From Raphidiopsis brookii D9 (GTDB lineage: Bacteria; Cyanobacteriota; Cyanobacteriia; Cyanobacteriales; Nostocaceae): a DNA stretch of 32,000 nt. Numbering within the stretch: the stretch's first letter is position 1; every line of letters begins with the position of its first letter. Of this stretch, positions 7,292-32,000 are shown piece after piece. The notes beneath the pieces are model-generated. The model saw only the letters and a program-made list of their open reading frames with translations, was not told the origin of the DNA and made no database searches. Where the stretch lies: assembly GCA_000175855.1 (NCBI GenBank), contig ACYB01000005.1, positions 30,178 through 62,177 on the forward strand, read 5' to 3'. Position numbers and translations under genes: made by a program.

Positions 7292-8134
7292 TCACCCAAG
7301 ATTTTGGTTTTCCTTGTTATTGAACCTACGTGTACTAGATGTAGTTTTTAATCCATTCCAACCGATGATAATGTAACCAATAGATAACAACAGACTGCCA
7401 ATTCCTATTCTTAGTCCAGACTTCCAAGCATTGTCTTTAGCTTGTGTTTCTGCTTCCCTTTGGCGTTGGCGAATTTGCTCGATTTTTTGTTTGGCAATTT
7501 CATTGGGATCGGTCTGCTGGGCAATAAATTTATCTATGTCTTGCGGGTTGGCTTGCAGTTTCTTGAGTAACTCTTTCTGTTCCGGGGGAAGTTGGGGGTT
7601 GGCTATTGCTTGTTTATATTTTTGTGGATCTTTAAGTATTTCAGTAATTTGTGCCTTCGCCTGAATTTGAGCCTGTTGTAATTGAGCGCGACCTTGGTCA
7701 TTATTCAGCTGACCCTGGAATTGGGCCAACTGGGTATTAAGTTGGGATTCTGCTTGTTGAGCATCTTGAGCAATTTGATTAACTTTTTCTTTACTGACCT
7801 GATCCACAGTTGTCACATGCAGGGGAAAAATCAACAAAAACATTAGACCAAAAATGCTAGAAAGTATTAAGGAAGGAAATTTAAAATCCATACCCGAATT
7901 TTTTCCCTGTTCATTGGTGTCCAACCAGTGGGCAATGAGAATCATTGCTAAACCTACCATGGGGACAACACCACGATCTACTAATGCTGTGGTTAGACCA
8001 ACTTGTGCTTGTTTATCTGTAAAGTTGAATCCCAGCATCAAAATCAAAAAATCTATGAAAAAAGATAAAATACAAACTATCCCCACTACTTTGAGAGTGA
8101 GGGAAGTATGAGAGTTGGTAGGACGATTAGCCAT
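7292..8134 (-). CDS. hpsJ: HpsJ-like membrane protein (hormogonium polysaccharide locus family)
   Basis: 280 aa. N-terminal hydrophobic helices (LKVVGIVCILSFFIDFLILML.., RGVVPMVGLAMILIAHWLD), a central Q/A-rich coiled coil and a C-terminal TM. The architecture, N-terminal sequence and position next to hps-type pseudopilins match HpsJ-family proteins as I remember them; this was not verified by search. Confidence 0.5.
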   Translation of the reverse strand: MANRPTNSHTSLTLKVVGIVCILSFFIDFLILMLGFNFTDKQAQVGLTTALVDRGVVPMVGLAMILIAHWLDTNEQGKNSGMDFKFPSLILSSIFGLMFLLIFPLHVTTVDQVSKEKVNQIAQDAQQAESQLNTQLAQFQGQLNNDQGRAQLQQAQIQAKAQITEILKDPQKYKQAIANPQLPPEQKELLKKLQANPQDIDKFIAQQTDPNEIAKQKIEQIRQRQREAETQAKDNAWKSGLRIGIGSLLLSIGYIIIGWNGLKTTSSTRRFNNKENQNLG

Positions 8135-8938: not shown

Positions 8939-9952
8939 CTATTTATAGAAAAAACCCTTTCCCTTCACCTGAGTGCTAACAGTGGGAAAATAGTGACTTA
9001 GTTGATTACTATTGATATTTAAATTATTAGGAATGCGAGCTAAAGCATCTCCCCGAATAAATACTTGTGCCGTTGCATTCAGTCTATCTACGCAGGCATA
9101 AAAACTAGTCATCCGACCAGTTGTAGTATTACTAAAATTGGATGAAGTAACCCTTGACCAAGTAATTTTAGGGTTAGTAGAGTCCGGGGGACAAACCGCA
9201 GGAGGTATATTATTAATTCTACTGTCAATATAATCTACTAAAACTATGGGGTCATTAGTATATCTAGCACTGTGCTTTCTCCAACCATTCATGATTTGTT
9301 CTAAATTACCTGAATTATTGAGATTAAAAAGAGAAAATCCAGGTTCAGGACAAAATTCTGGGGGATCAGAATTAGAATTGCCCTTTATAGAATTGCCCTT
9401 AATATATGTTCCCGGATATCCATTGCAATCAACTATTTGATTAAACTCTCTAGTATTAGCCAGAACACCATCTCTAATTTTCCATCTAGCAATACGAGCT
9501 GATTTTGACCACTCAGATCCGGATGCAGTTGTATCTCTGATTAAATAATAAACAACCAGAGAATAAACAAAAGCATCATCTTTGATTGAATTTCCGGGAA
9601 CTGGTAAAACATTTTCTATTGTTTCCTGTCGCCAAAAAACCAGCACAGGAACCCTGTCTATACCGGTAGGAGTAGAGGGTAATTGGGATCTGATAGCATT
9701 TATTCCCTGAGCATCATAAATATAAATTGCCTGTTTTAAATCATTGGCAATATAGTTCAAAGCTGTTTGAATTTCTGCCCCAGTAGTTATTTTGGCTTGT
9801 TCCTGTCGGTTTATTTCGATCACATTAATTAGTAACCTTAATAGAAGAGTAATACTGATGACTCCTGTGGTCAAACCAACGAGTAGTTGCACTATGGTAA
9901 ATCCATAGAATGAACCATTTTTTGAGGGCGTAAGTAAGGAGATTATTGACAT
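8939..9952 (-). CDS. hpsC: large pseudopilin-like protein (HpsC-like), atypical Gln at +5
   Basis: Starting at the ATG at 9952 gives MSIISLLTPSKNGSFYG|FTIVQLLVGLTTGVISITLLL, a pilin-like leader and helix with Q instead of E at +5. That start overlaps the stop of the upstream pseudopilin gene by 10 nt (ATGTCAATAA), suggesting translational coupling. Confidence 0.6.
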   Translation of the reverse strand: MSIISLLTPSKNGSFYGFTIVQLLVGLTTGVISITLLLRLLINVIEINRQEQAKITTGAEIQTALNYIANDLKQAIYIYDAQGINAIRSQLPSTPTGIDRVPVLVFWRQETIENVLPVPGNSIKDDAFVYSLVVYYLIRDTTASGSEWSKSARIARWKIRDGVLANTREFNQIVDCNGYPGTYIKGNSIKGNSNSDPPEFCPEPGFSLFNLNNSGNLEQIMNGWRKHSARYTNDPIVLVDYIDSRINNIPPAVCPPDSTNPKITWSRVTSSNFSNTTTGRMTSFYACVDRLNATAQVFIRGDALARIPNNLNINSNQLSHYFPTVSTQVKGKGFFYK

Positions 9953-10626
9953 AGGGTGGAACTGGAATAAGTGGTGGGTGCGATCGTACCTAAACGCTGA
10001 CATAGAGAGTAAAAAGAGGTTTTATTATTGGTTACTTCCGTGGTCATTTGTATTAGTGGCACCTGTTTATTGCCAAGATTATGACTTATGGAAGATGAGG
10101 TGGATTTATTAATTGAGATTTGTTGAGTAAAATCAATATCTGCTCTAAAAACTCGTATGGACAAAAGATAACTCTCATTTTTGGAACTTGTGGCAATTGT
10201 ACCCGCTTGAATATAAAACAAATTATTGGAATTATTTTGGCATCCCGTAAAACTAATTATGCCATTTTGGTTATAACAATATAAGCCATTTGCTGATGTT
10301 GGTGCTGGCATTTGCGAGCTGGTAATCAAATAATCTTGGGGACTGGTAGAAATATTCCTGGGAGCTTGTTGACTAGGAGTAATTTCAGATATTACTTGTG
10401 GCGTGACAATGGAACCCATTTTCACCCCATTAACAAATGATGTTACTGCTTGAGCAGCCATTTCCACGCGCCGTGCTTGCATACGGATGGCTGTGGACAT
10501 AATCCATATTGGAGTGATTACCATTAATAATAAAGATACAGTGGAAATGGCCACTAGTGATTCTAAAACAGTAAAACCATCATATTCTGAATAACAGGGT
10601 AAATATTTTTTGAGATGACTTAGCAT
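9943..10626 (-). CDS. hpsB: prepilin-type pseudopilin (HpsB-like)
   Basis: The N-terminus ..SEYDG|FTVLESLVAISTVSLLLMVITP is a canonical G|FT..E prepilin signal. 227 aa. It begins 26 nt downstream of the HpsA-like gene. Confidence 0.65.
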   Translation of the reverse strand: MLSHLKKYLPCYSEYDGFTVLESLVAISTVSLLLMVITPIWIMSTAIRMQARRVEMAAQAVTSFVNGVKMGSIVTPQVISEITPSQQAPRNISTSPQDYLITSSQMPAPTSANGLYCYNQNGIISFTGCQNNSNNLFYIQAGTIATSSKNESYLLSIRVFRADIDFTQQISINKSTSSSISHNLGNKQVPLIQMTTEVTNNKTSFYSLCQRLGTIAPTTYSSSTLCQ

Positions 10627-10652: not shown

Positions 10653-13600
10653 CTAAAAACAATTAAATCGTTGATCTGGATCAACAGCGTAGGTTGCATC
10701 ACTGGTTTGTTTGGCACATAAAAGGGTTTGAATCCATTCATCATCTCGACCAACTTGACGAAAATAGTCTTTGGATAACTTTTGTGATTTTATAGGAATT
10801 TTTTGGGCAAATAAATCCAGTGGTTGAGATAAAAGTCCCACATCATAATGCCATTGTCGTCTAGGTGGAAGATGCCCAGAACTTCTACCAAAATTCACGG
10901 CAATTTTGTATTGAAAATCCTGGGGTTGACTGTTAATAGATGTGCTATAGGTTCCCGTGGCATAGTTACTCCTTTTCATTTGAATAAATGCACCATTGAT
11001 TGTCAGATCTATAGGGGTAGTATTAGGGCTCCAATTTTCCAATAAGCGGAGTAAGTTGGGTAACCCCCATTATCTTCCATTGGACGAGCTGGATTGTCTC
11101 CCGTAGCAGCAATAAAATTCACAGTAGTTGGGGTTGCTATCTGTAACCAATGACTATGTGAACCATTGGTAATGCTGTTAGTGTTATGGGGGTCAGTTAG
11201 GGTGGCAAAGGGTTGATTAATTTGTAAAACTGGTTGCCAAAAACCATTGAAATCAGGTGTTAACCAGGGAATGAGAAATCCTTGATTATTTTCATTGACA
11301 GCTAATCTTGGTAAGGTGTTACCTGAAAAAGCAAAAGTTTTAATTATCTGATTATTATCCACTCCATAAACAGTTAGGGGTTGAAGTAATTTACCTGTTG
11401 CCAGATTTCTTTTGAAAGCAATTCTTTTAGGCAAGTTTATGGCTTCCCAACCATTAGATGGTGGATGATTATAACCAAGACTTCCAGTTTTAATGGCAGT
11501 TATTGGTAGACCCTCTATATTACCTTCTGGTTGTGCATTGTATTCACTTCTAGAAAATCTACTAATTACCCATTGTGTTGGGTCATTGTTACATATATCA
11601 GTATTAGACACTAGACAAACCTCTAACAGAAATTCTCTAGCTGGTATTTGTTTAACTATGGGTGTGACAAAGTTGTGAAAATAGGAACTACCTTGTGTAC
11701 CGTTAGTTGTGGGATCCAGATCGATATTTGGTATACCATTGATATCATAATTTCGGGTTACTGTGGGAGCATAAGTGTTATATTCAAAGTTGGGAGGACG
11801 ATTATTTAGGGATGCAGTATGGCCAATATAATTATTCCAATCATAGTCTCCTTCATTGCGAAACCCAAATCTAAAGTTCTGAGAAAGTAAGGTAATGGAA
11901 TCTGCTAATATGGCAGCATTTCGCCACTCATCACCTACAGTACAAATAGATGGTCCAGAATCACTAGGAATTAGTTTAGGATCGCCAGGACGACAAGCAA
12001 ATTGACGGTTTACCTGACTACGATTGTAAAAATTACTCCAATCAGCTGCTAAGGTACTGGTAAATTCTTCTTGGGTATGTCTATTGAAATCACCTTTAAT
12101 ATAAACCGGTAAGTTAGAAGCTAAAATCAAACCCTTTTCCTGTCTTATAAATGTATTACTTGATCCACGGAAAAGTTTAGTTGGTGAACCATCACTAGTG
12201 GTAATTAGAATCCCATTAGGACGACGAGTAGGATCAAGTTTATAATCCAGAGAACTTTCTGATTTAGCAGATATTCCTCCACTGCTATCTGGTAGAGCAT
12301 CATCCCGAGTCGCATAAATAATTCCACTATTGGGTAATAAATACTCATCGGTTGATATTCTGGTTGTGCGTAGCTGATTTAAGTCTATGACTGTAGCACG
12401 AATTTCTAACGGTTGTCTATCTCTCAGAGGTAAATCGTAGGGTAAATTACTATCCATTTGTACCCGGTTTGAGGTTTGATTAGCTCTGATTTCTCTGGAA
12501 TCTAAAAAAGCTATTTCCTTAATTGCACCATGGGGAATGGGAGGGTTACTCAGAGGACTTATACTACCATCCATAATTTGTAAAGCACATAAGGCAGTAT
12601 CTATGGCAGACTTTTCTGATAAGGAATAGTTGTTTTTTGCTAAAGCATTTCTCAAAGGTTCATTTACCCAACGTCCATTAGGATATTGCAACTCGGCTTG
12701 ATATCTGAGTAAATTTGCATAAGCATTAACATTTCTAGTGGGAGGTGGATAAACAATACCATTGTTTGATAATCCCTGGGGAGATTTTTCTATTCCTCCT
12801 GCATTGGGTAAGCTCATCATATTTGTTGCTGTGCTGCTATTTGTAGGAAGATAAAAACTACTAATGCAAGCTATGGGGGTGGGGTTAGTCTGGTTATAGT
12901 TAGTAGATTTATAGTGGTAAACCACCGTAGCTCGCATTTTTAAATAGGGGGTTGTAATGTCTGTTTCAGAAAGTTTAGGTAGGGTAAATTTTAAGGATGA
13001 ATCATACATCCAGTAGGGATCAATGGTTGTATTTGGGTATTCTTGAGATGTTTGTGGTATGGGTAAGATATCGGACCAAATTTTTGTTGAAACATCTACA
13101 AAGTTCGTGCTAGAAGCAGTATGATTTCTGGGTAAATATATTCCAGAACCAGTAACCACACGCAAACCACCAATGAAATTTTCCTGTTGTGGATTTTGGG
13201 GTACTTGTGCTGCTGCATATTCCCAATCTCCATCCCTTTCTATTGCAGCTAAATCAGCTAAGTTATGCAGGGTGGTATAACGAGTTCTTGGTTGATTACT
13301 TAGATCCCAATTAATATCTTTGAGGTTTTGAGTGTGGTTAATATCGGTGGTAAAAAAGCGATTTTGTGGATAGTTCCACCACATTTGGGGTAGATTGTGA
13401 CCAACTATAACCCGGTCTCCTAAATACTGCTCTACTCCCCCTAGTTGTTTTTGCAGTTGCTCCATGGGTTCTGTTGCACTAGGTTTGAGTAAATTACCAC
13501 CAATATTCCCACTAATATTTAATGATAATTCACTATGATTAGTTCCTGTAATTCCATCACTAGCAAATGGATAAATCCATCGATCTATGGGACGCAGGGT

Positions 13601-15034
13601 ATCACCAGTACCTTGTAAGGGATTATGGATCTTATTTACATCGCTCTGTTCACTGCCAAAAGGTACTTCTTGAAAAGGCACACGGCGGGTGCGTTTTTGA
13701 AAATAGAGTTCTAATTCTTTACGGCGAATTTGGTCATACTGATCGTTTGTATATGCTGTTCCTAATTGCCTTTGTTTTTTGGTGATTCCCTGTTTTACTT
13801 CTTGGGGGTCGGTGGTCAAAGAATTGGCTAGTTGGGTATCTACTAACTTATTAATTCTTTTTACATAAGCCAGACTGTTATAGGCTATGCTTCGTGGTGA
13901 ATTAGTAACTGATTTATGGTCTCTAATTCTGGGGTTGTATCCCGCAACTGTTTCTGGATTTATGCCTTTATCCTTAAATAAATCTATGGTGGTTGCTATG
14001 GATAAATCTGTATTATCTGTAAATCCACCCGCTGCTAAATTCCCACCTACGATAATTTTGGAGTTTTCTGGTTCGTAAAAGCAAGAACTCTGACTACTAA
14101 TTTGATAGAGTCTAATTGAGCGGGAAGCTGAACCAGTTAACAAGTTACTATTGGTAAAAATTCTGCCATTAATTCTGAAGTCTTCATTGCCAGTAATTTG
14201 TAAGTCATCTTCATAAACAATGGCGTTGTTACTAGATGGAAGTTGGATTCTCTCTTGCTTATATTCTAGAGCATAAAATGCTTTATTTTCTGAGGATATT
14301 TCATAGTTAATTTGATTTTGTGTGGGTATGGTCATCTGGCTAGTAATGGGAACTGTAACAGTATAAACAAAAAAGGCTTTTCTCATTTGTCTACCGATTA
14401 TTAACCACCCGTTTGTATCTACTAAATTACCACTTATTGAATTGAAATCCTGACATCGAGAATTAAAATCGATTGGATTTATAGGTAAAGATCTAGCTTC
14501 TAAAGTGTTTCTAGCTCGTATGTATTGCTGATTGCTTTGAGGAGGATTTTTAAAATAAATGCCATAAAGAGTGTAACTGTCAAATTTACCATTGTTATTA
14601 GTGTCTACGGGAAATTTCCAGGCGGTTTTTAAGGGTTCGTAGTTTTGCAAGTTCAGGGTCAGATTAGTCTCATCACCAAAGGTATATTCGTCTAGGTGAT
14701 TCACTAGGTTATTATATAAGTCTTGATCTGAAGGTAAAAATTGGGTAATTCTAGGATCTGCCAACATTTGGTTAATCTTGGCTCTTCCCCTATCTATTGC
14801 GGGAGTCGCTGCATTGATTACTGTTTGATTAATCCTGGTATTATGAGCATGTTTAGCTCTTTCAAAGGAGCGAAATATAATTGCCATTGTTAGTAACATT
14901 AGGACCAGGATAACCATGGTTGTTGTGGGCAATACAAATCCTTGGTTTTTTAAGGTTTGTCTCCTTTGATATTTCAAAATAATTTTTAAAAACCATTTTA
15001 TAAAGCTTTTTATAGCTCTTGCTAAAATAGACAC
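10653..15034 (-). CDS. hpsA: HpsA-like giant exported protein (~1460 aa if repaired), interrupted by a 1-nt frame change in a homopolymer (pseudogene or sequencing error)
   Basis: ORF 11009-15034 (1341 aa, GVG start, pilin-like hydrophobic N-terminus ..KNQGFVLPTTTMVILVLMLLTMAIIF) and ORF 10653-11042 (129 aa) overlap by 34 nt. The downstream frame opens exactly at the C5 run (G5 on the coding strand) at 11064-11068. One extra G would read ..PMEDNGGLPNLLRLLENWSPN.. continuously. The size and the position ahead of three pseudopilins fit HpsA of the Nostoc hps locus. Confidence 0.6.
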
Positions 15035-23060: not shown

Positions 23061-23735
23061 ATGAACAGCAAATTCTCAGCCACAGGTTTAGTAGCAACCC
23101 TAGCCCTATCAAGCATTTTGGGTTTAGGACATCGTCAATTAAAAGCCCAATCATCAGATGACGCATTCTTTGATCCGAGCGATCCCAGTCAATACAACGG
23201 AACTAAATTTACCTGTGTAGCCCAAGGTAGCGACTGGTCCACAGTTGGACAGCGCCCTGGTGGTAGACCAATTCCCATAATTGTGTGGACAAAAAAAGGA
23301 GCCCAGTCCTTTGGCGAAAATTATAATCCCAAGAGCCGTTGTGAAATCGTCACAGCCAACCTCAACCAAGCGGTAGAAGACAGTGCTGGTAAGCTTTACG
23401 ACGTAGTCCTAACCTGGGGTAAACTTGGCGATGGCAAGACTGTTATTTGCGCACTTTCTTTAAAGGATAAAGGAGGTTGTGATGGTAACAATACCCTGTT
23501 TGCTCTGAAGCCAGAAAATGCCAAGGACCCTAATAAGGTTTTAGAAACCCTGACTCAAATTAGCATTAAAGGTTCCAGTGCAGGGACTGTTCGTGAAACA
23601 ACAAGTCGTTTGAGTGTAAACCTGGGCAAAGTTGTCTCACAAGCAGCCAAGCGATTGCCTCAAGAAACACCCAAAACTCGCACAATTCCCGGAAATAGAC
23701 CCGTTAAAGATACACCCGTTAAAGGTACTCTGTGA
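23061..23735 (+). CDS. exported COP23-domain protein, paralog 1
   Basis: Sec-type signal peptide (..LSSILGLGHRQLKA|QS), then a four-Cys domain: YNGTKFTCVAQG..W.TVGQRPGG.PIP.I.WT....FG..Y.P..RC..VT......G.L......G....G..VICA......GC....LFALKPEN. This pattern matches the cyanobacterial COP23 (circadian oscillating protein, 23 kDa) family as I recall it. The C-terminal tail is basic and Pro-rich. The RBS AGGAG lies ~10 nt upstream. Confidence 0.65.
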   Translation: MNSKFSATGLVATLALSSILGLGHRQLKAQSSDDAFFDPSDPSQYNGTKFTCVAQGSDWSTVGQRPGGRPIPIIVWTKKGAQSFGENYNPKSRCEIVTANLNQAVEDSAGKLYDVVLTWGKLGDGKTVICALSLKDKGGCDGNNTLFALKPENAKDPNKVLETLTQISIKGSSAGTVRETTSRLSVNLGKVVSQAAKRLPQETPKTRTIPGNRPVKDTPVKGTL

Positions 23736-23854
23736 CGAGTTGGTAACAAAACTTTGTATTAGAAGTTATCAGCATCGGGAACTTTCGCAATTCCATACTA
23801 GTCAATTTTTTCTAGGATGCACACAACAAAATTAGGGAGTCATTTAGGAACATT

Positions 23855-25084
23855 ATGAACATTATATCAAAATCACATCTAAAATCTTCCGTAGTTATGG
23901 TAACCCTGTCCATCTGCGGTTCCTTGTCAGTTACACTTCCCATAGGTGCTCAGGTGCCTCCAGTGGCACCAGTCATCTATGTAGATCCCGCTAATGGGTT
24001 GAATGTTGTTGGCAATGGTAAGTCCCCAACAAATCCATATAAAAGCATTACTTTTGCCCTGGATCAGGCCCAATCGGGAACCATAATTCAGTTAGCTCCT
24101 GGTAGCTACACTAACGAGTCCTTTCCCATCCGAGTCAAACAGGGTGTTACCTTGCGGGGTGATGAATCAACCCAGGGCAAGACGGTGGTGATTTCCGGTG
24201 GTGGGGATTACAACAGTCGTAGGTTTGCCAAACAAAACGTGACAATTCTTGCGGGAGAGAATAGTACAATTACTGGTGTAACCGTGACGAATCGGAATGA
24301 CAGAGGCACGGGTATATGGGTAGAATCAACTAACCCAGTGATTAAGAATAGCACATTTACCCAAAATTCCCGGGAGGGAGTATTCTTGATTGCTAGTCCC
24401 AATCCTACCGTGGAAAATAACCAGTTTATAGCAAACAATGGCAACGGTATTTCTGTAACCAAATCCAGCGGGGGGAAAATTAACGAGAATGTATTTGAAG
24501 GTAGTGGCTTTGGGTTGAGCATCAATGATGACTCCGCACCAGTATTGACTAAAAACCAAATCCTAAACAACAAAGATGGACTACTTATTACTGAGACAGC
24601 TAAACCATCGTTACGGGGCAATGTAATTAAGAATAACCAACGGGATGGCATAGTCATCACTCTTAATTCTTCCCCGGACCTAGGCACCCGGAGCAATCCA
24701 GGTGGCAATGTCATCGTCAACAATGGTCGCTACAACATTTATAATGCTACCACAACTGGTGTTGCCATTTCCGCACTGGGTAATACCATAGACGACTCAG
24801 GGATTTTAGGTGAAGTAGAAATAGATGGAATCCAAATTACAGGTAGCAAAAAACCAGTGTCATCCGACGACCCAAATTTAGCCCTGTTAAAAAGATGGCA
24901 ATTAACAGCTGTTTCCTGCAACTCTGGTCCAGCAATTGACATCTTTATAGGTGATAGACAGTATTGTGTCAGTCCCCACCCAGACCTAACCGCTAAGGCT
25001 TATGAGTACAATCCTACCACTGGTACCCTCAGAGCTTTAAGAACTGGCCCACGTGGCAACTCAATCATACGACCTGGCTTGTAG
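23855..25084 (+). CDS. exported right-handed parallel beta-helix protein (DUF1565-type)
   Basis: Signal peptide, then IYVDPANG..GNGKS..NPYKSITFAL.QAQSGTIIQLAPGSY (the DUF1565 N-terminal hallmark). This is followed by ~8 imperfect ~22-aa N/G/T/V-rich coils (..NSTITGVTVTN.., ..NPVIKNSTFTQN.., ..NPTVENNQFIAN.., ..APVLTKNQILNN.., ..KPSLRGNVIKNN..) and a ~90-aa C-terminal non-repeat region with two Cys. Confidence 0.75.
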   Translation: MNIISKSHLKSSVVMVTLSICGSLSVTLPIGAQVPPVAPVIYVDPANGLNVVGNGKSPTNPYKSITFALDQAQSGTIIQLAPGSYTNESFPIRVKQGVTLRGDESTQGKTVVISGGGDYNSRRFAKQNVTILAGENSTITGVTVTNRNDRGTGIWVESTNPVIKNSTFTQNSREGVFLIASPNPTVENNQFIANNGNGISVTKSSGGKINENVFEGSGFGLSINDDSAPVLTKNQILNNKDGLLITETAKPSLRGNVIKNNQRDGIVITLNSSPDLGTRSNPGGNVIVNNGRYNIYNATTTGVAISALGNTIDDSGILGEVEIDGIQITGSKKPVSSDDPNLALLKRWQLTAVSCNSGPAIDIFIGDRQYCVSPHPDLTAKAYEYNPTTGTLRALRTGPRGNSIIRPGL

Positions 25085-25132
25085 ATTTTGCTCCAGCAAG
25101 ACCTGAAACTAAAAGCAAATTAAGGAGATATT

Positions 25133-25780
25133 ATGAACAGCAAATTCTCAGCTACATTTTTAGTAGCTACCCTAACCCTATCAAGCATTTTGGGTTTAGG
25201 AAATGGTCAATTAAGAGCCCAATCATCAGATGATGAATTTTTTGATCCGAGCGATCGCAGTCAATACAATGGGACTAGATTTGCCTGTGTAGCCCAAGGT
25301 AGTAACTGGGCCACAGTTGGACAGCGCCCTGGTGGTAGACCCATTCCCATAGTTGTGTGGACAAAAAAAGGAGCCCAGTCCTTTGGCGAAAATTATAATC
25401 CCAAGAGCCGTTGTGAAATCGTTACAGCCAATCTTAACCAAGCAGTGGAAGACAGCGCTGGTGATCTTTATGACGTAGTCCTAACTTGGGGTAAACTTGA
25501 TAATGGCAAAACTGTGATTTGCGCACTTTCTTTAAAAGACGAAGGAGGTTGTGATGGTAGCAATACTCTGTTTGCTCTGAAACCCGAAAATGCCAAGGAT
25601 CCTAATAAGGTTTTACAAACCCTGACTCAAATTAGTCTTAAAGGTTCTAGTGCAGGGGTTGTTACTGAAACAAAACCTCGTTTGAGTGTAAACCTAGGTA
25701 GGGTTGTATCCCAAGCGTCCAAACGCTTGCCCCAAGAAACACCCAAGACCCGCAAAACTCCCAAATCAACTATAAGGTAG
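25133..25780 (+). CDS. exported COP23-domain protein, paralog 2
   Basis: Roughly 85-90% identical by eye to paralog 1 at protein and DNA level, with the same signal peptide and four Cys. The C-terminal tail is shorter (ends ..KTPKSTIR), and the next paralog starts 9 nt later. Confidence 0.65.
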   Translation: MNSKFSATFLVATLTLSSILGLGNGQLRAQSSDDEFFDPSDRSQYNGTRFACVAQGSNWATVGQRPGGRPIPIVVWTKKGAQSFGENYNPKSRCEIVTANLNQAVEDSAGDLYDVVLTWGKLDNGKTVICALSLKDEGGCDGSNTLFALKPENAKDPNKVLQTLTQISLKGSSAGVVTETKPRLSVNLGRVVSQASKRLPQETPKTRKTPKSTIR

Positions 25781-25789
25781 ATAGAGATT

Positions 25790-26470
25790 ATGAGTAGGAA
25801 ATTCTCAACCACATTTTTAGTAGCTACCCTAACCCTATCAAGCATTTTGGGTTTAGGACATGGCCAATTAAAAGCCCAATCATCAGATAACGCATTTTTT
25901 GATCCGAATGATCCGAGTCAGTATAACGGGACTAGATTTGCCTGTGTAGCCCAAGGTAGTAACTGGGCCACAGTTGGACAGCGCCCTGGTGGTAGACCAA
26001 TTCCCATAGTTGTGTGGACAAAAAAAGGAGCCCAGTCCTTTGGCGAAAATTATAATCCCAAGAGCCGTTGTGAAGTTGTCACAGCCAACCTCAACCAAGC
26101 CGTGGAAGATAGCGCTGGCAATCTTTACGACGTAGTTTTGACCTGGGGCAATGTTGGTGACAAAACTGTTATTTGCGCACTTTCTTTGAAGGATGAAGGA
26201 GGTTGTGATGGTAACAATACCCTGTTTGCTCTCAAACCCGAAAATGCCAGGAACCCTAACAGGGTTTTAGAAACCTTGACCCAAATTAGCATTAGAGGTT
26301 CTAGTGCAGGGGTTATTACTGAAACAAGGGGACGTCGTCCTAATCGTGCTAGCGTAAACCTAGGTGAAGTTATCTCACAAGCAGCCAAGCGCTTGCCCAA
26401 ACAAACGCTCAGAACCCGCCCAAATCCTGGAGTTAAACCTACTGTTAGGCCTACTAGAGGTGGTCTATGA
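25790..26470 (+). CDS. exported COP23-domain protein, paralog 3
   Basis: Near-identical core to paralogs 1 and 2. The tail is divergent and R/P-rich (..RGRRPNRASVNLG...RTRPNPGVKPTVRPTRGGL). Confidence 0.65.
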   Translation: MSRKFSTTFLVATLTLSSILGLGHGQLKAQSSDNAFFDPNDPSQYNGTRFACVAQGSNWATVGQRPGGRPIPIVVWTKKGAQSFGENYNPKSRCEVVTANLNQAVEDSAGNLYDVVLTWGNVGDKTVICALSLKDEGGCDGNNTLFALKPENARNPNRVLETLTQISIRGSSAGVITETRGRRPNRASVNLGEVISQAAKRLPKQTLRTRPNPGVKPTVRPTRGGL

Positions 26471-26561
26471 CGAATGGCGGTTCTTGCATAATTGCTAACA
26501 AAATTGAAAGCGTGGGATAACCAAAATTTTCCACGCTCCACCGAGAAAAGAAAGAGGCATT

Positions 26562-27337
26562 ATGAAATTTTCAGCAGCAGTTTTGACTACTTTCCTGACT
26601 GTATCAGCTATAGGTTGGCATGCTGGTATGGTGAGAGCTGTACCAGTGGAAAGTGGAGATAACCCCCCACTATCCCTGCACCCGACAACCCATCAAACTC
26701 ACAACAGACTGATGGTGATGAAGGCTACAGTGGAGACAACCCACCCACTACTCCTGCATCCAACAACCCATCAAACTCACAACAGACTGGTGATGATGAA
26801 GCCTACAGCGGGACAAAATTTACTTGTGTGTCCCAAGGTAATGGCAAGTGGGCTACCGTTGGACAGCGCCCTGGTGGACAGCCAATTCCTGTAATCATTT
26901 GGACCCAATCAGCTTCCAAATATTTTGGTAGCCAATTTGCCCCCGAAAACCGGTGCCAAATCGTCACCAGCAAGTTCAATACAGCAGTGCGAGAGAGTGG
27001 TGGTAGCCTTCAGGATGTGTTGTTAACTAGTGGCAATGTTAATGGTCAGGTTGTTATTTGTGTAATTTCCGACCGAGATAATGGGTGTCAGGAGAAAAAT
27101 ACCCTATTTACCCTGAAACCAGAAAATGCCAAGAACCCTGATAAGGTTTTATCTCAACTCTTGGAGATTAGCACTAAGGGGTCAGACGGAGGTGTAATTA
27201 CTGAAACAAGAAGTAATCGGCGGCGGGTTACAGTCAAACTCAGTGATGTGCTGTCAATAGCAGCTCGACGCTCATCTTCTTCACCCGTTAAAAGGCCAAA
27301 GGTTCAAAATAACCGACGGAATCAACGTGGTTTGTAA
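26562..27337 (+). CDS. exported COP23-domain protein, paralog 4, with a repeat-containing acidic linker; reading frame broken by 1 nt in a C6 run (pseudogene or sequencing error)
   Basis: ORF 26562-26894 supplies the signal peptide (MKFSAAVLTTFLTVSAIGWHAGMVRA). The COP23 domain (..YSGTKFTCVSQGNGKWATVGQRPGGQPIP..) is in the frame of ORF 26828-27337, which is open back to a stop at 26660-26662. The two frames meet at CCCCCC 26663-26668. Adding one nt gives ..ESGDNPPTIPAPDNPSNSQQTDGDEGYSGDNPPTTPASNNPSNSQQTGDDEAYSGTKFTC... Confidence 0.6.
26652..26806 (+). repeat. direct tandem repeat (77 nt + 78 nt) inside COP23 paralog 4
   Basis: Unit 1 is 26652-26728 (AGTGGAGATAACCCCCCACTATCC...GAAGGCTAC). 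Unit 2 is 26729-26806 (AGTGGAGACAACCCACCCACTACT...GAAGCCTAC). Unit 1 is exactly 1 nt shorter, at the C-run where the frame breaks. Each unit encodes a ~26-aa P/S/N/Q/D-rich segment. Confidence 0.85.
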
Positions 27338-27364
27338 AGTAATTGTGGGAAAAAGGAATGGTAC

Positions 27365-27985
27365 ATGATGAAACTATCCACGACAGTTCTAGTTACTAGT
27401 TTAGCCCTAACAGGAACTTTGATTCAGTTTGGGGTACAAGCTAAGCCCCCTACTGAAACCTACAATGGCACCAAGTTTACATGTGTTTCCCAAGGCAATG
27501 GCAACTGGGCTACTGTTGGTCAGCGTCCCGGTGGTGGTCCAATTACCGTAATTACCTGGACAAAAGAGGGTTCTAAATATTTTGGGGACAACTATACTGC
27601 TCAAAATCGTTGTCGAATGGTAACTCCTAAATTTAATCGAGCTGTGAAACAAAATGGTGGACGTCTGAAAAATGTAGCTCTAATTAAAGGTATTGTTAAC
27701 AATGAGACAGTTATCTGTGTAGCTTCTACAAGAAGTAGAACAGGTTGTAATGCTGAAAATTTCTTGTTTACTCTTAAGCCAGAAAATTCTCAAAAAGCCA
27801 ATGAGATTCTGGCACAACTTACGGGAATTGGTAAATTGGGTTCCAGCGCAGGAGTTATCTGGGAAACAACCGGTCGTCTGCGAATTGAATTGAGTGAGGT
27901 TCTCGACCATAATCTTGACCCACAACCCCAGCATTCTGACAAAATAACACCACCAGCAGACTCTAATCGGGGGTTCAAACTATAA
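27365..27985 (+). CDS. exported COP23-domain protein, paralog 5 (divergent)
   Basis: Signal peptide, then YNGTKFTCVSQGNGNWATVGQRPGGGPITVITWT..FG.NY...NRC..VT....V..NGG.L.......G..N...VICV.......GC....LFTLKPEN. It has the same four Cys and the invariant TVGQRPGG, and is ~50% identical by eye to paralogs 1-4. Confidence 0.65.
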   Translation: MMKLSTTVLVTSLALTGTLIQFGVQAKPPTETYNGTKFTCVSQGNGNWATVGQRPGGGPITVITWTKEGSKYFGDNYTAQNRCRMVTPKFNRAVKQNGGRLKNVALIKGIVNNETVICVASTRSRTGCNAENFLFTLKPENSQKANEILAQLTGIGKLGSSAGVIWETTGRLRIELSEVLDHNLDPQPQHSDKITPPADSNRGFKL

Positions 27986-28052
27986 ATTCTACCCGGATGA
28001 GAAGGAATTAATCAACCGCTCCTTTTTTGAGTGAATCACCGTGTTTTATCCC

Positions 28053-28853
28053 ATGTCTTTTAGGTTGTCTGTGCTATTACTGACAACAACTCTTCCCACT
28101 GTTTTGTATTCTCAAACCCTACCTAACTTCCTGGCTTCCAAACCCCATCCCGGATTTGAATTTCCCGCCGCCAGGACTGCCAGTAAAGTAACAGTCAGAA
28201 TTTTTACCAAGTCTGGATCCGGTTCAGGAGTAATTATCAACCGTCAAGGAAAAAGCTACACGGTTTTGACCAATGATCACGTAGTAGTGGATAGTCCTGA
28301 GAGTGGTTATGAGGTTTTAACACCTGATGGCAAGATTTACAAAGCTCACCAGTTGCCAACGGTAAATCCTGATTCCCTGGATCTAGCACTGGTGGAATTT
28401 ACCAGTGGGGAAAATTATCAAGTTGTGCAATTTTCCCAGTCGCCAAATATATCTGGGGAAGTGGTATATGTATCTGGGTTTCCAGCGTGGCATTTTGTTT
28501 TTAATCGGGATACTATCAGCAAAGTGGAAACAACCCGCAATTGGGGACTGGGTGCTTTCAAGCTACGACCAGGCAACATCAAAATGTATCTTGACAAGAC
28601 CTTGGTAGGTGGTTACAAGTTAGGTTTTACCAATGATTTTACCCAAGGGATGAGTGGAGGCCCTGTTCTAAATCAACAAGGAGAGCTTATTGGCATCAGT
28701 GGTTTATTAAAATACCCATTTCAGGGGATTAATGCCTTTATTTTCACTGATGGAACCAGGCCAGAAAGGGAAGAATACCGTAGAATCGAGTCTTTAAGTT
28801 GGGCTATTCCTATTTCCACTGTGGTTGGTTTTCTCCAAGAGCAAAAAAAATAA
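28053..28853 (+). CDS. exported trypsin-like (S1/Trypsin_2-type) serine protease
   Basis: Hydrophobic N-terminus and a full catalytic triad in the canonical order and context: TNDHVV (His), DLALVEF (Asp), GMSGGPV (Ser). The start is ATG at 28053 (MSFRLSVLLL..) or GTG at 28041. Confidence 0.8.
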   Translation: MSFRLSVLLLTTTLPTVLYSQTLPNFLASKPHPGFEFPAARTASKVTVRIFTKSGSGSGVIINRQGKSYTVLTNDHVVVDSPESGYEVLTPDGKIYKAHQLPTVNPDSLDLALVEFTSGENYQVVQFSQSPNISGEVVYVSGFPAWHFVFNRDTISKVETTRNWGLGAFKLRPGNIKMYLDKTLVGGYKLGFTNDFTQGMSGGPVLNQQGELIGISGLLKYPFQGINAFIFTDGTRPEREEYRRIESLSWAIPISTVVGFLQEQKK

Positions 28854-28936
28854 TAGAATTATCATTATCAATCATAAGCAAATATTTATGATTTTTGACA
28901 CTATTCCTACGCAAAAACACTGTGGGAGAAAAGTAA

Positions 28937-30458
28937 ATGAATTTAAGTATTACAACAAAAACCCCAAGAAAAACTACGATAAAAACTGCCAGAATTAATC
29001 TTTTTCTACTGGCTAGTGCACTCGTAACTGCTATTACATCTACTACTTCGTTAGCCACAGACACTATCAGTGCCCAGGACATAGCACAAATTGCTAAGAA
29101 GACATCTGTACAGATTAATACAGAAGGTGATATTACTCCGGGTGGTTCAGGAGTGATTATTGCCCAACAAGGTAATCGTTATTCTGTACTAACGGCCAAT
29201 CACGTGGTCTGTGATATTATAGACAGGCCGGGAAAAATTACCTGTGCTAAAGACATTACCTATTCTGTAAGAACAAATGATGGCAAAGAATACCCGATTC
29301 AATCACAGGACATTATAGTCCTACAGTCAACCAAAAATGATCCTGATTTAGCCCTAGTTAGCTTTGTAGCTACAGAAGAATATCCCGTAGCTAATTTAGG
29401 TGATTCTGACCAAATGACAGAAGCATCAGATGTGTTTGTGGGGGGTTTTCCAGCAGTATTTGGTAAAGTTGGATCAGCCAGAGATTTTAGTTTTAGTAAA
29501 GGGATTGTTCTTTCGCGTGGTAGAACTTCTATTAATGGGTACAGTTTAATTTACGATGCCAAGACCCTGACCGGGAATAGCGGTGGACCGGTTTTTGATA
29601 TTAAGGGTAGAGTGGTGGGAATTCACGGGTTAGCAGACGCCTCGAATAAAAGTAAAACAGAAACGGGAGAACTAGTATCACAGAAAACCGGATTTAATGC
29701 TGGCATTCCCATTAATACTTTTTTGAACTTCAATAACCCCCTGGTTAAAGATCTGCCAATTAAAAGGAATACCATTGCTACTGGGGAAGCGCCACAAGAA
29801 CGTTTAAATTCTCCCCAATCTGCTCGAGATTTCTATGCCAGAGGTATTACTAAGCTGGAACAGTTTAATTATAAAGAGTCTTTAGCTGATCTTGATCAGG
29901 CGATCAAAATTGACCCCAAATATGCAGAAGCTTATTTCAAACGCGGATATGCTCTCAGTTGGCTGAGAAGATACGAAGAAGCCCTTTTGGACTTTAACCA
30001 GGTAATTGCCTTGGATCCAAATTATTTGGATGGTTATCTCAACCGTGGCTGGACTTATATCTGGTTACAAAATGACCAGGCCGCTCTTGAGGATTTCAAT
30101 CGGGTAATTCGTATCAATCCTAATTATGCTGAGGCATACGCCCATCAAGGTATGGCTTATATTAAGCTGGGCAAGTATCAAGCTGCCCTAGAATCTTCTA
30201 AACAAGCTATTAGGTTGGATCCTAATAAAAGTTATGGGTATACGATTCAAGGTGATGTATTCAATTATCTTAAAGACTATCCTGCTGCTATCAATGTTTC
30301 GACTTTTGCAATTAAAAATTGATCCAGATGATTTTAATGCCTACATAAATCGTGCTTTAGCATATACTCTCACAGGTAATTATTCAGACGCTCTTGTGGA
30401 CTATCAAAAGTCCGCAGAAATTTTTGAAAGACGTTACACCAGAAAACCTTCAAACTAG
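28937..30458 (+). CDS. exported trypsin-like serine protease fused to C-terminal TPR repeats; last TPR split by a 1-nt frame change in an A5 run (pseudogene or sequencing error)
   Basis: Triad TANHVV / DLALVSF / GNSGGPVFD, followed by at least 5 TPR units (..AIKIDPKYAEAYFKRGYA.., ..VIALDPNYLDGYLNRGW.., ..VIRINPNYAEAYAHQGMA.., ..AIRLDPNKSYGY..). ORF 28937-30322 stops at ..FAIKN*. ORF 30234-30458 continues as ..KIDPDDFNAYINRALAYTLTGNYSDALVDYQKSAEIF. Removing one A from AAAAA at 30314-30318 restores FAIKIDPDDFNAY.., a perfect TPR junction. Confidence 0.75.
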
Positions 30459-30853: not shown

Positions 30854-32000
30854 CTATTGTGTGTTACACTCTGCATGTCTGGATAGGACAGCTGCATGTG
30901 TCTCGGGGAGGGAAGCTCTCACGCACCAACGACGCACCCACCCTAAAAATCCATCTCCAAAAACTAACCCAAACACCCACAACACTAACAAAAATGGCCA
31001 CAGCAATGGCCACAGCACATAGACCACAGCAACCAGCAGCAAACCAAACCCCCACCACTCATTCCAAACCCTCTCTGGAGACGTATAGAAGATATCAGTG
31101 AATATAGCTTTTGGTAGGTGACCTGATGGTACTGTTTGTGAAAAGTTTAAGTCTTCATAAGAGAGCCATTTTCCTGTACTCCTCCATCCGATACGGTCTC
31201 CTAATGATTTATATATGTTTCTACTAAGCCCCTTTGTGGAATTCAGGCTTTGGTATATCTGGTACTGAATGGATATACCAAATTTACCTTGACTGTATTT
31301 TAACCACAGTTCGTCGATGGTCTGCAATCCTTTGCAAGGAAAATTTTCTACATCTTCTTTTCTTAGGTAACCTTCTTTTTCTCGGTTTGCTACCTTTAAC
31401 ATGATTTTTCCGGTTTCTATATCTGCTTGCCTAAACTTTTTGGATTTTAATAGTCTATCTAGTCTTGAGAATAGAGGTCTATAACGAGATGATTTAGCTA
31501 ATTTAGTATCTTTTGAAAGCAGTAAGTTATAAACAGCATCTTTAACCTCCCAGGAATCATCTTTTTCTAAGATTTTCAGTAATAAATCAGTTAAGTTATG
31601 GTTAAGTTTGATAGCTTTTGTGTAATCGTCAATGGCACCCTGCTTATCTCCTAACTCGCTGCGTGTATTCCCACGGTTATAGTAAGATTCGGCATCATTA
31701 GGATTAATTTTGATGTCTTGATTATATTTATCTAATTCTCTATACTTTCTCAATATTTCTAGGTATTTATCTCTGTGGTTTTTAAATATGGAACTAATCC
31801 AATTTTTTGATTCTTTAATAGGTAGATCAAGGATAATTTGTGGTGTTATATTCTTGGAATTAACTAGTAATTTGAGTAATTTACTACTAATTTTAGATTG
31901 ACTAATTTGGTAAAAGTATGCAGCTAGGTCATATTCTTTTATTTCAGTAAATAATTTACCTAATATCTTATATTTTTGATATTTCTTGTTTTTCTTATGG
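30854..32000 (-). CDS. TPR + GUN4-domain protein with a C-terminal Trp-rich hydrophobic tail (5' end outside the window)
   Basis: GUN4-domain hallmark: F.QADIETGKIMLKVANREKEGYL..EDVENFPC..L.TIDELWLKYSQGKFGISIQ..IYQSL...LGDRIGWR....W........F....PSGHLP. A TPR unit (INPNDAESYYNRGNTRSELGDKQGAIDDYTKAIKLN) precedes it. My translation shows the frame stays open upstream of the TTG at 31753, all the way to position 32000 (..HKKNKKYQKYKILGKLFTEIKEYDLAAYFYQISQSK..), so the gene is truncated by the window edge. Confidence 0.8.
   Translation of the reverse strand, partial: HKKNKKYQKYKILGKLFTEIKEYDLAAYFYQISQSKISSKLLKLLVNSKNITPQIILDLPIKESKNWISSIFKNHRDKYLEILRKYRELDKYNQDIKINPNDAESYYNRGNTRSELGDKQGAIDDYTKAIKLNHNLTDLLLKILEKDDSWEVKDAVYNLLLSKDTKLAKSSRYRPLFSRLDRLLKSKKFRQADIETGKIMLKVANREKEGYLRKEDVENFPCKGLQTIDELWLKYSQGKFGISIQYQIYQSLNSTKGLSRNIYKSLGDRIGWRSTGKWLSYEDLNFSQTVPSGHLPKAIFTDIFYTSPERVWNEWWGFGLLLVAVVYVLWPLLWPFLLVLWVFGLVFGDGFLGWVRRWCVRASLPETHAAVLSRHAECNTQ

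Follow-up and report, generated by a model that had tools for sequence, protein, structure and literature searches.

Why would a cyanobacterium keep five copies of one small exported protein directly ahead of two serine proteases? The question is raised by a stretch of 32,000 nucleotides (nt) from Raphidiopsis brookii D9 (assembly GCA_000175855.1, contig ACYB01000005.1, positions 30,178 to 62,177), referred to here as the window and numbered from its first letter; the closest named proteins are from Cylindrospermopsis raciborskii and Raphidiopsis. Positions 23061-30458 of the + strand hold eight co-directional genes, as judged from their open reading frames (ORFs) once two frameshifts are allowed for. 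Five encode COP23, a protein that has had no function since its description in 1996; one encodes a right-handed beta-helix protein that ends in a partner domain, called CTD here, and two encode S1 proteases. In the loci surveyed, COP23 genes usually sit in a fixed cassette with a CTD partner, two dedicated serine proteases and a shared C-terminal tag. It is very likely that the genes of this cassette form one functional unit, and as such they provide the first testable lead to what COP23 does. How the unit would work is a more tentative matter: it is quite possible, judging from sequence, that PDZ-less HtrA-like proteases are recruited to COP23 and the CTD adaptors and trim or degrade both, with the C-terminal tail assisting.

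The cassette opens with COP23 paralog 1 (23061-23735) and an exported-type DUF1565 beta-helix protein (23855-25084), followed by COP23 paralogs 2 (25133-25780), 3 (25790-26470), 4 (26562-27337, frameshifted) and 5 (27365-27985). It closes with a short exported-type S1 (Trypsin_2) protease that has no accessory domain (protease 1, 28041-28853) and with an exported-type S1 protease carrying TPR units (protease 2, 28937-30458, frameshifted). The original prediction had counted nine genes, but ORF 30234-30458 is the out-of-frame end of protease 2. It had also given all of its ORFs signal-peptide-like N-termini, which holds for the eight real genes and fails for 30234-30458. Each of the eight N-termini has a K/R n-region, a hydrophobic core of ~12 amino acids (aa; mean Kyte-Doolittle value about 2), no acidic residues and A-x-A-like sites after the core; the call rests on this hydropathy check and not on SignalP or another trained predictor. 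The common strand and the short gaps (119, 48, 9, 91, 27, 55 and 83 nt) were reproduced, the sixth being 55 nt when counted from GTG 28041, the start chosen by the ORF finder, and 67 nt, as first predicted, when counted from ATG 28053. The latter is the likely true start of protease 1, and its ortholog at locus L004 begins at the equivalent position (MSFRLSV). A profile scan of every ORF in the window found five COP23 domains, one CTD and two S1 domains, and no further copy of any of them outside the cassette.

The arrangement is conserved well beyond this genome. In a forward survey, one genome per species was scanned with a COP23 peptide motif, and the 47 loci obtained, 46 of them evaluable, were analyzed by tblastn and with our own profiles. 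In 28 of the 46 evaluable loci, the next gene after COP23 on that strand is an S1 gene of the protease-1 type, and 25 of those 28 also have a second S1 gene, of the protease-2 type. These loci come from Nostocales, Phormidium, Microcoleus, Limnoraphis, Pleurocapsales, Leptolyngbyaceae, Elainellales and Chroococcales. A cyanobacterial genome contains perhaps ten to twenty Trypsin_2 genes among several thousand, from which the chance rate of a Trypsin_2 neighbor would be well under 1%, a figure that is inferred and not measured. Most Chamaesiphon loci have the adaptor and COP23 with no protease in cis, and four of them carry a convergent S1 gene instead. The survey was seeded by one motif, and subfamilies without that motif, including the canonical diazotroph proteins, were sampled by a few look-ups only. 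A COP23 profile search recovered mostly the same Nostocales and Oscillatoriales proteins, and three cluster look-ups gave filamentous taxa only.

The reverse survey started from the proteases. An alignment of 16 protease-1 orthologs was used to scan metagenomes, giving 79 loci, which carry no taxonomy; 69 of these have at least 900 nt upstream. COP23 lies directly upstream of protease 1 in 45 of the 69 by script, or in 48 if overlapping stop-to-stop ORFs are allowed. A second S1 gene is next in most of the loci, and those in which COP23 is missing are mainly the weakest protease matches. The functional pairing of COP23 with the proteases that was originally suspected from the window alone is strongly supported by synteny kept from Pseudanabaena to Nostocales, and seen from the protease side as well.

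The same domains are also found fused. S1 and COP23 are joined directly in single ORFs (L116 and L124), and S1, a TPR-like helical region and COP23 occur together in others (L070, L079 and an Oxynema protein). In several loci both proteases form one polypeptide, with two Trypsin_2 domains followed by long TPR arrays, and PDZ is present in a single fused metagenomic relative of this type (L111). On some protease-2-type proteins, GUN4 replaces the TPR region. Fusions within the COP23 family comprise DUF1565+COP23, two PG_binding_1+COP23, COP23+GUN4 (P0173) and COP23 with a coiled coil. The first of these mirrors the DUF1565+CTD protein of the window, and the PG_binding_1 fusion places a COP23 domain at the cell wall. 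Taken together, the fusions suggest joint action of the two proteases and a common site of action, at the cell wall or close to it, for them, the beta-helix head and COP23.

The five COP23 paralogs were recognized in the original prediction from sequence motifs, and all of them match PF14218 (E 2e-24 to 1e-30; 86-107 bits against a gathering score of 27); the quoted motifs and four cysteines are invariant among the window copies. Paralog 1 (224 aa, E 2.1e-24) consists of a signal peptide with a hydrophobic N-terminus, the COP23 domain with its four cysteines and a basic tail that ends in KGTL. The others are of 215 aa (paralog 2, E 4.4e-25), 226 aa (paralog 3, E 1.3e-25, end RGGL), 258 aa once its frame is restored (paralog 4, E 1e-30 for the 3' ORF, end QRGL) and 206 aa (paralog 5, E 9.4e-30, end RGFKL). 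Paralogs 1-3 share 80-85% aa and 88-94% nt identity, with paralog 3 at 80-83% aa identity to the other two, and the repeat begins 5 nt before each ATG. Paralogs 4 and 5 have 45-51% aa identity to the other copies. By this measure, paralogs 1-3 are recent duplicates and paralogs 4 and 5 are old. Paralog 2 ends in KSTIR, 9 nt before the start of paralog 3 (region 25678-25790); its tail is shortened at a duplication junction marked by the boundaries of repeat families D1 and D5, and lacks the G-L end. It appears that copy 3 arose by a tandem duplication which cost paralog 2 its tail and Gly-Leu end, leaving a natural tail-less variant.

Among 117 diverse members of the family, C83, C118 and C128 never vary, whereas conservation of C40 is 90% or more. 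An AlphaFold2 model of paralog 5 has a predicted local distance difference test score (pLDDT) of 80, with core residues 37-165 mostly above 90 and a disordered tail below 50. Compared with solved structures, the model has no relative by fold (best E 0.04, template modeling score below 0.2) or by profile, and no sequence or fold similarity was found between COP23 and any solved inhibitor of serine proteases (ecotin, SSI, Kazal and others). The family is widespread in filamentous cyanobacteria, among them Microcoleus, Limnospira, Chamaesiphon and Phormidium, some of which are presumably non-diazotrophic. One COP23 subfamily has lipoprotein-like signal peptides, with a cysteine after the hydrophobic core.

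What has been reported of COP23 concerns its abundance, rhythm and location. In UCYN-A, the COP23 transcript shows the largest day-night change (PMC6315102), and in a diatom spheroid body COP23 is the highest-expressed of all genes (PMC11131595). In a diazoplast, COP23 is strongly repressed by ammonium; COP23 of Synechococcus RF-1 behaves as a membrane-associated protein and follows a rhythm of synthesis and degradation in which degradation needs light and Ca2+ (bioRxiv 10.64898/2026.04.23.720389). The Anabaena 7120 homolog, Alr2313, is present in the exoproteome (PMC4390845), and alr2313 is reduced in a sigG mutant (PMC4390870). Circadian oscillation and a peripheral membrane location, which characterize the founding protein, are given in the literature for the RF-1, UCYN-A and diazoplast homologs. 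The export-type N-termini of the window paralogs fit both the membrane-peripheral location and the presence of Alr2313 outside the cell.

The Trypsin_2, TPR and DUF1565 assignments that had been made by eye are upheld by Pfam hidden Markov models (HMMs). The beta-helix protein (409 aa) matches PF07602 (120 bits, gathering score 20.3, E 1.2e-34), PF13229 (125 bits, gathering score 25.9, E 3.4e-36) and the NosD model, with a weak match to the LIC10774 surface-protein family and no relative in the PDB by sequence. Its C-terminus carries the CTD (24833-25051), a domain of ~60-70 aa that forms the last ~65 residues before the tail (residues ~327-399) and is matched by its own profile at E 1.5e-26. 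The CTD follows the pattern W-x-L-T-x-V-x-C ... Y-C-x-x-P ... Y-x-Y ... L, in which two cysteines, a proline and a tyrosine are invariant. It has no Pfam match, and its AlphaFold2 model, one helix and four strands with a core pLDDT of about 80, has no match in the PDB. A word-indexed protein search with the domain returned only 15 small Chamaesiphon-type proteins.

By tblastn and HMM, a CTD is present in the gene directly upstream of COP23 in 33 of the 47 genome loci, including 14 Chamaesiphon loci that have no protease, and one or two copies end protease 2 in 12 genome loci. The heads to which it is attached vary: a DUF1565 beta-helix in Nostocales, a coiled coil in Chamaesiphon, Scytonema and Leptolyngbyaceae, a region with no Pfam match in Microcoleus and, in Phormidium, a weakly PPC-like head (E 0.003, below threshold). 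CTD and COP23 take equivalent places in fusions, both after DUF1565 and after S1-TPR, and the simplest reading is that the CTD would attach variable heads to COP23 or to whatever COP23 binds.

Both proteases have the intact triads that were initially read from their sequences, H80, D114 and S205 (GMSGGP) in protease 1 and H89, D137 and S215 (GNSGGP) in protease 2; the former is invariant in 16 orthologs. They score 79.7 and 80.9 bits against PF13365, for which the cut-off is 27.6 (E 4.6e-22 for protease 1 and 2.1e-22 for protease 2). Protease 2 contains TPR_1 (E 5.5e-28) in four stretches, to which the frameshifted tail adds another, making at least five TPR units. The nearest PDB relatives of the protease domains are HtrA, DegP, DegQ and DegS (E 2.6e-6 for protease 1, and 1e-6 or weaker overall), although the NCBIfam cut-offs for that family are missed by a wide interval (52.7 and 54.7 bits against 416 for TIGR02037; 39.8 against 450 for HhoA_HhoB_HtrA). 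Neither window protease has a Pfam match to PDZ. We propose that the two proteases go back to an ancient duplication, have HtrA-like catalytic domains but no PDZ, and work as a pair. In Microcoleus, Limnoraphis and Cronbergia, protease 2 has no TPR.

A further common element is found at the very end of the proteins. COP23 and its CTD partners have a polar, low-complexity tail that finishes in a glycine and one hydrophobic residue (Leu, Phe or Ile). In the surveyed genome loci, the final residue is L or F in 92% of COP23 proteins and in 20% of background ORFs, and G[LFI] ends are found in 72% and 6%, respectively; most of the "background" G[LFI] ends belonged to CTD partners that had not been recognized as such. 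All CTD partners in these loci end in a hydrophobic residue, and the last residue is I, F, L, W, Y or V in 78% of 148 COP23 representatives that share no more than 50% identity. Many tails end in GG-X. In the window the ends are KGTL, RPGL (the beta-helix protein), RGGL, QRGL and GFKL, with paralog 2 as the copy that has no motif. The last residue of the CTD partner is that of COP23 in 30 of 33 loci, against a mean of 15 and a maximum of 25 after shuffling, a result inflated by relatedness. Independent cases that support the agreement are a switch from F/Y to L within Microcoleus and two Phormidium groups with all-F and all-L/I sets, respectively, in which both proteases carry the tail too. 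The tails are polar and have no hydrophobic helix, and so do not have the tripartite signal of the sortase or exosortase type (motif, hydrophobic helix and basic tail).

This C-terminal end, the CTD and the wide spread of the family in filamentous cyanobacteria were not noticed in the original prediction, nor were the two frameshifts, which bear on whether the cassette is active in this strain. Three-frame translation shows that paralog 4 is split into ORFs 26562-26894 and 26828-27337 by the loss of 1 nt at a C6 run (26663-26668), which is one base short of an open frame. Adding one base there gives a protein of 258 aa, the same length as an intact homolog (P0069, 258 aa). The lesion coincides with the first base of a 78-nt tandem repeat (D6, 26663-26811, 87% identity) encoding a duplicated 26-aa linker, rich in Pro, Asn and Ser, between the signal peptide and the COP23 domain. 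In protease 2, removal of one A from an A5 run (30314-30318), which is A4 in relatives, gives 506 aa, matching an intact ortholog of 507 aa; intact orthologs range from 507 to 567 aa. In the restored frame, ORF 30234-30458 supplies the last TPR units.

The nearest assembly, GCA_002321935.1 (locus L056), has the same gene order with 95% nt identity over 13.8 kb; a look-up of the paralog 5 sequence gave no exact entry. It reads GATAATCCCCCCACT in frame at the paralog 4 site and has GCAATTAAAATTGATCC, with A4, at the protease 2 site. However, it has a different frameshift further on in paralog 4, caused by an extra C in CCCACCTACT (L056 9750-10100), and its beta-helix gene is frameshifted as well, with calls of 183 and 232 aa (L056 7134-8373). 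The lesions are thus not the same in the two near-identical assemblies, and they are located in homopolymers or next to them. Assembly error explains such a pattern no less well than gene decay does, which suggests that homopolymer or low-complexity stretches are error-prone in these assemblies.

What, then, might such a unit do? In the model that we prefer, this locus would be one copy of a conserved cyanobacterial envelope cassette, amplified on the COP23 side, with the order CTD-bearing exported adaptor, one or more COP23 proteins, short S1 protease, and a further S1 protease that ends in an accessory domain (here TPR). Sec-type signal peptides would take all of the products out of the cytoplasm, where they would fold with disulfides once outside. 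Recruitment would take place via the accessory module of protease 2, which is TPR here and may be CTD, COP23, GUN4, PDZ or WD40 in other lineages. Hydrophobic C-terminal peptides are known to tether substrates to DegP or to activate DegS, and the flexible client tails ending in Gly-Leu/Phe/Ile-COOH probably aid recruitment in a similar way. By trimming or degrading COP23 and the adaptors, the proteases would set the level of an abundant envelope protein, and they are candidate enzymes for the light- and Ca2+-dependent degradation of COP23 that has been reported. What the analysis itself shows is family membership, export-type N-termini, intact triads, two-way synteny, fusions, the CTD and the C-terminal motif.

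Several points weigh against it. The contact between protease and COP23, the direction of action and the role of the tail are steps that we infer. A stable partner with a regulatory or targeting role would account for the covalent S1-COP23 fusions no less well than a substrate would, and the Chamaesiphon pairs that lack a protease in cis imply that COP23 has a function independent of an adjacent protease. TPR cannot be the universal reader, since some lineages have a protease 2 without it, and the presence of the tail on some proteases themselves (Phormidium, Microcoleus) suggests a reader outside the proteases. With two of its eight genes frameshifted, the cassette may be partly inactive in this strain. 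Finally, the canonical COP23 genes of unicellular diazotrophs, and Alr2313, lie outside the neighborhood surveys.

The fusions are the starting point for a different assignment of roles, in which COP23 would be a stable subunit of the protease, whether regulatory, inhibitory or targeting, that takes the place of the missing PDZ. It might be an ecotin-like or pro-domain-like inhibitor or a foldase, with the hydrophobic last residue of its tail held in the S1 pocket like a product, as in the pro region of alpha-lytic protease, and the five paralogs would then tune two proteases or protect against them. COP23 is found at the C-terminus of protease 2 in several lineages, in the place that TPR, CTD, PDZ or GUN4 occupies elsewhere; its gene immediately precedes that of protease 1, and the stop codon of the one often overlaps the start codon of the other; its tail is flexible (pLDDT below 50) with a conserved hydrophobic end; and it is the COP23 side that is amplified while the number of proteases stays constant at two. 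However, the COP23 fold is unlike that of any solved inhibitor or pro-domain, and its top expression in diatom endosymbionts and strong cycling are less expected of a stoichiometric inhibitor than of an abundant protein with a structural or physiological role. Adaptors with unrelated heads carry the same tail, and in Chamaesiphon COP23 is kept without an adjacent protease. We regard this role as somewhat unlikely, though it is the main rival to the preferred model.

The tail could instead be a signal for sorting or cross-linking. In the manner of sortases and D,D-transpeptidases, the S1 pair would cleave off the last residue and link the glycine to an amine through its freed carboxyl, on peptidoglycan or on a protein of the module, producing a COP23/adaptor layer covalently anchored in the envelope. 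The tail is present on all protein classes of the module, including both proteases in some lineages, its terminal residue co-varies within loci and many tails end in GG-X. Dedicated proteases are encoded beside the tagged proteins, a PG-binding+COP23 fusion exists and RF-1 COP23 is membrane-associated. Against this, no transmembrane helix or charged anchor follows the motif, unlike in LPXTG, PEP-CTERM and GlyGly-CTERM, the motif is absent from paralog 2 and from some family members and the Anabaena homolog is released into the medium. Nor are HtrA-like S1 enzymes known for transpeptidase activity, and on balance such a signal seems improbable. There is an equally small chance, or one very slightly greater, that COP23, the CTD adaptor and the S1 pair constitute an unrecognized extracytoplasmic assembly system in which the Gly-hydrophobic end would be a new sorting or ligation tag read by the proteases, which might clip the final residue and cross-link the proteins to one another or to peptidoglycan. 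If that were true, the system would produce a regulated COP23 envelope layer whose build-up and removal underlie the diel and nitrogen-dependent behavior of COP23 in diazotrophs and their organelle-like descendants.

It may also be that the genes are neighbors only through shared envelope or stress regulation and that their products do not interact, with the frameshifts real and the cassette perhaps decaying here. The lesions in two of the eight genes could be so explained, as could those that the 95% identical L056 has of its own in paralog 4 and the beta-helix gene, and the decrease of alr2313 in the sigG mutant suggests a regulon. Promoter-like matches (19, with 16.8 expected) and terminator-like matches (6, with 8.2 expected) were at chance level, and co-transcription is thereby neither shown nor excluded. 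However, the genes stay in order, on one strand and closely spaced from one cyanobacterial order to another, whichever side the search starts from, and it is difficult to see how several independent domain fusions could have arisen if the products did not cooperate physically. As for decay, assembly error is just as good an explanation for frameshifts at or beside homopolymers that two near-identical assemblies do not share. Co-regulation alone, or a decaying locus, is improbable as a general explanation, though this one copy, given its frameshifts, may be decaying.

The cassette can be set beside several known systems. Like COP23 of Synechococcus/Cyanothece RF-1 (circadian oscillating polypeptide, 23 kDa), the window paralogs match PF14218 and keep four cysteines. 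They differ in forming a five-copy array in a filamentous genome of the Cylindrospermopsis/Raphidiopsis type, set among an adaptor and two proteases that are absent from the COP23 literature searched. With the HtrA family (DegP, DegQ and DegS; HhoA, HhoB and HtrA in cyanobacteria), the proteases share an extracytoplasmic-type S1 domain, the same His-Asp-Ser order and the nearest matches in the PDB and NCBIfam, and one fused cassette relative has a PDZ domain. HtrA enzymes read the hydrophobic C-termini of their clients, which the Gly-Leu/Phe tails of the cassette resemble. However, the window proteases lack PDZ and reach 52-55 bits against a cut-off of 416. They are a heterologous pair, equipped with TPR, CTD, COP23, GUN4 or WD40 modules, and they adjoin genes for specific small proteins, whereas HtrA enzymes are stand-alone agents of general quality control.

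The sortase/LPXTG, exosortase/PEP-CTERM and rhombosortase/GlyGly-CTERM systems likewise have a short C-terminal motif on several exported proteins encoded beside dedicated proteolytic enzymes, and a motif that co-varies with lineage. In the cassette, the motif itself forms the very end of the protein and is followed by neither a transmembrane helix nor a basic anchor, and the enzymes are S1 serine proteases rather than cysteine transpeptidases or rhomboids. The 409-aa protein resembles DUF1565/NosD-like beta-helix surface proteins in matching DUF1565, Beta_helix and NosD, and weakly LIC10774, but adds the COP23-linked CTD and the tail at its C-terminus; elsewhere the same slot upstream of COP23 is taken by PPC-like or coiled-coil heads.

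Every catalytic or repeat domain of the cassette belongs, by its profile matches, to a known family, and the cassette is not a new kind of molecule. What appears to be undescribed in the literature searched is the cassette as a unit, the CTD, the C-terminal tag with its co-variation, and paired proteases with interchangeable docking modules. In agreement with the original expectation of an uncharacterized module, neither a link between COP23 and a protease in cyanobacteria nor a citation of PF14218 was found there. The analysis delimits a class of HtrA-like proteases that come in pairs, lack PDZ and carry exchangeable docking modules, together with a domain outside Pfam.

Upstream, the cassette is flanked by hisS, a SpoIIE-type phosphatase gene, ftsY, nusB, a U32 peptidase gene, glgC and a DnaJ-like gene. 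A mobile island was rejected, as the flanks are housekeeping genes (hisS, ftsY, nusB, glgC and the dnaJ-like gene) and base composition is unremarkable. Control by NtcA was considered and rejected as well: the window contains 7 copies of GTAN8TAC, just as many as chance predicts, and none of them lies ahead of the cassette. An anti-phage defense system was likewise dismissed, since PADLOC gave only generic S1-domain matches for the proteases (LmuA, RT-protease) and none for COP23 or the beta-helix protein. Directly after the cassette, a convergent gene (30854-31753, - strand) encodes a membrane protein with TPR, GUN4 and a hydrophobic C-terminal segment. In other loci, GUN4 domains occur in fusions with COP23 (P0173) and with S1 domains of the protease-2 type (L091 and L110), and GUN4-like domains may therefore share the network of the cassette. 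Three other ORFs on the - strand have no Pfam match at E up to 1e-5, one of 1341 aa (11009-15034) and two of 280 and 354 aa (7292-8134 and 8939-10003).

Individual loci vary around the common order. In Anabaena sp. 90 (L001, CP003284.1), DUF1565 is followed by two COP23 genes, an IS605 TnpB insertion, a third COP23 gene and S1-TPR; the IS605-type TnpB/OrfB element occupies L001 8732-9970. Scytonema and two Phormidium species, including Phormidium yuhuli, have COP23, S1 and S1-TPR, and Oxynema aestuarii has COP23, S1 and S1-TPR-COP23. A genome assembly of 52.6% GC has three COP23 genes and then S1. In Limnospira, a lipoprotein-type COP23 precedes an S1-WD40 protein; in Limnospira fusiformis (CP051185.1, L136 6001-9121), this type of protein is of 829 aa, with an N-terminal S1 domain and WD40 propellers, and its serine motif is GMSSEP rather than GMSGGP. 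The COP23 and S1 genes of Pseudanabaena PCC 6802 have overlapping stop and start codons; next on that strand come an SLH/OprB porin gene and a gene for a HemolysinCabind protein (L138 8064-9926), neighbors that hint at an outer-membrane context. In two Phormidium genomes (L007 3147-6734 and L008 14672-19438), large STAND NTPase-WD40 proteins (NB-ARC or nSTAND1) are encoded within a few kb of the cassette; such genes are common in filamentous cyanobacteria and may be chance neighbors.

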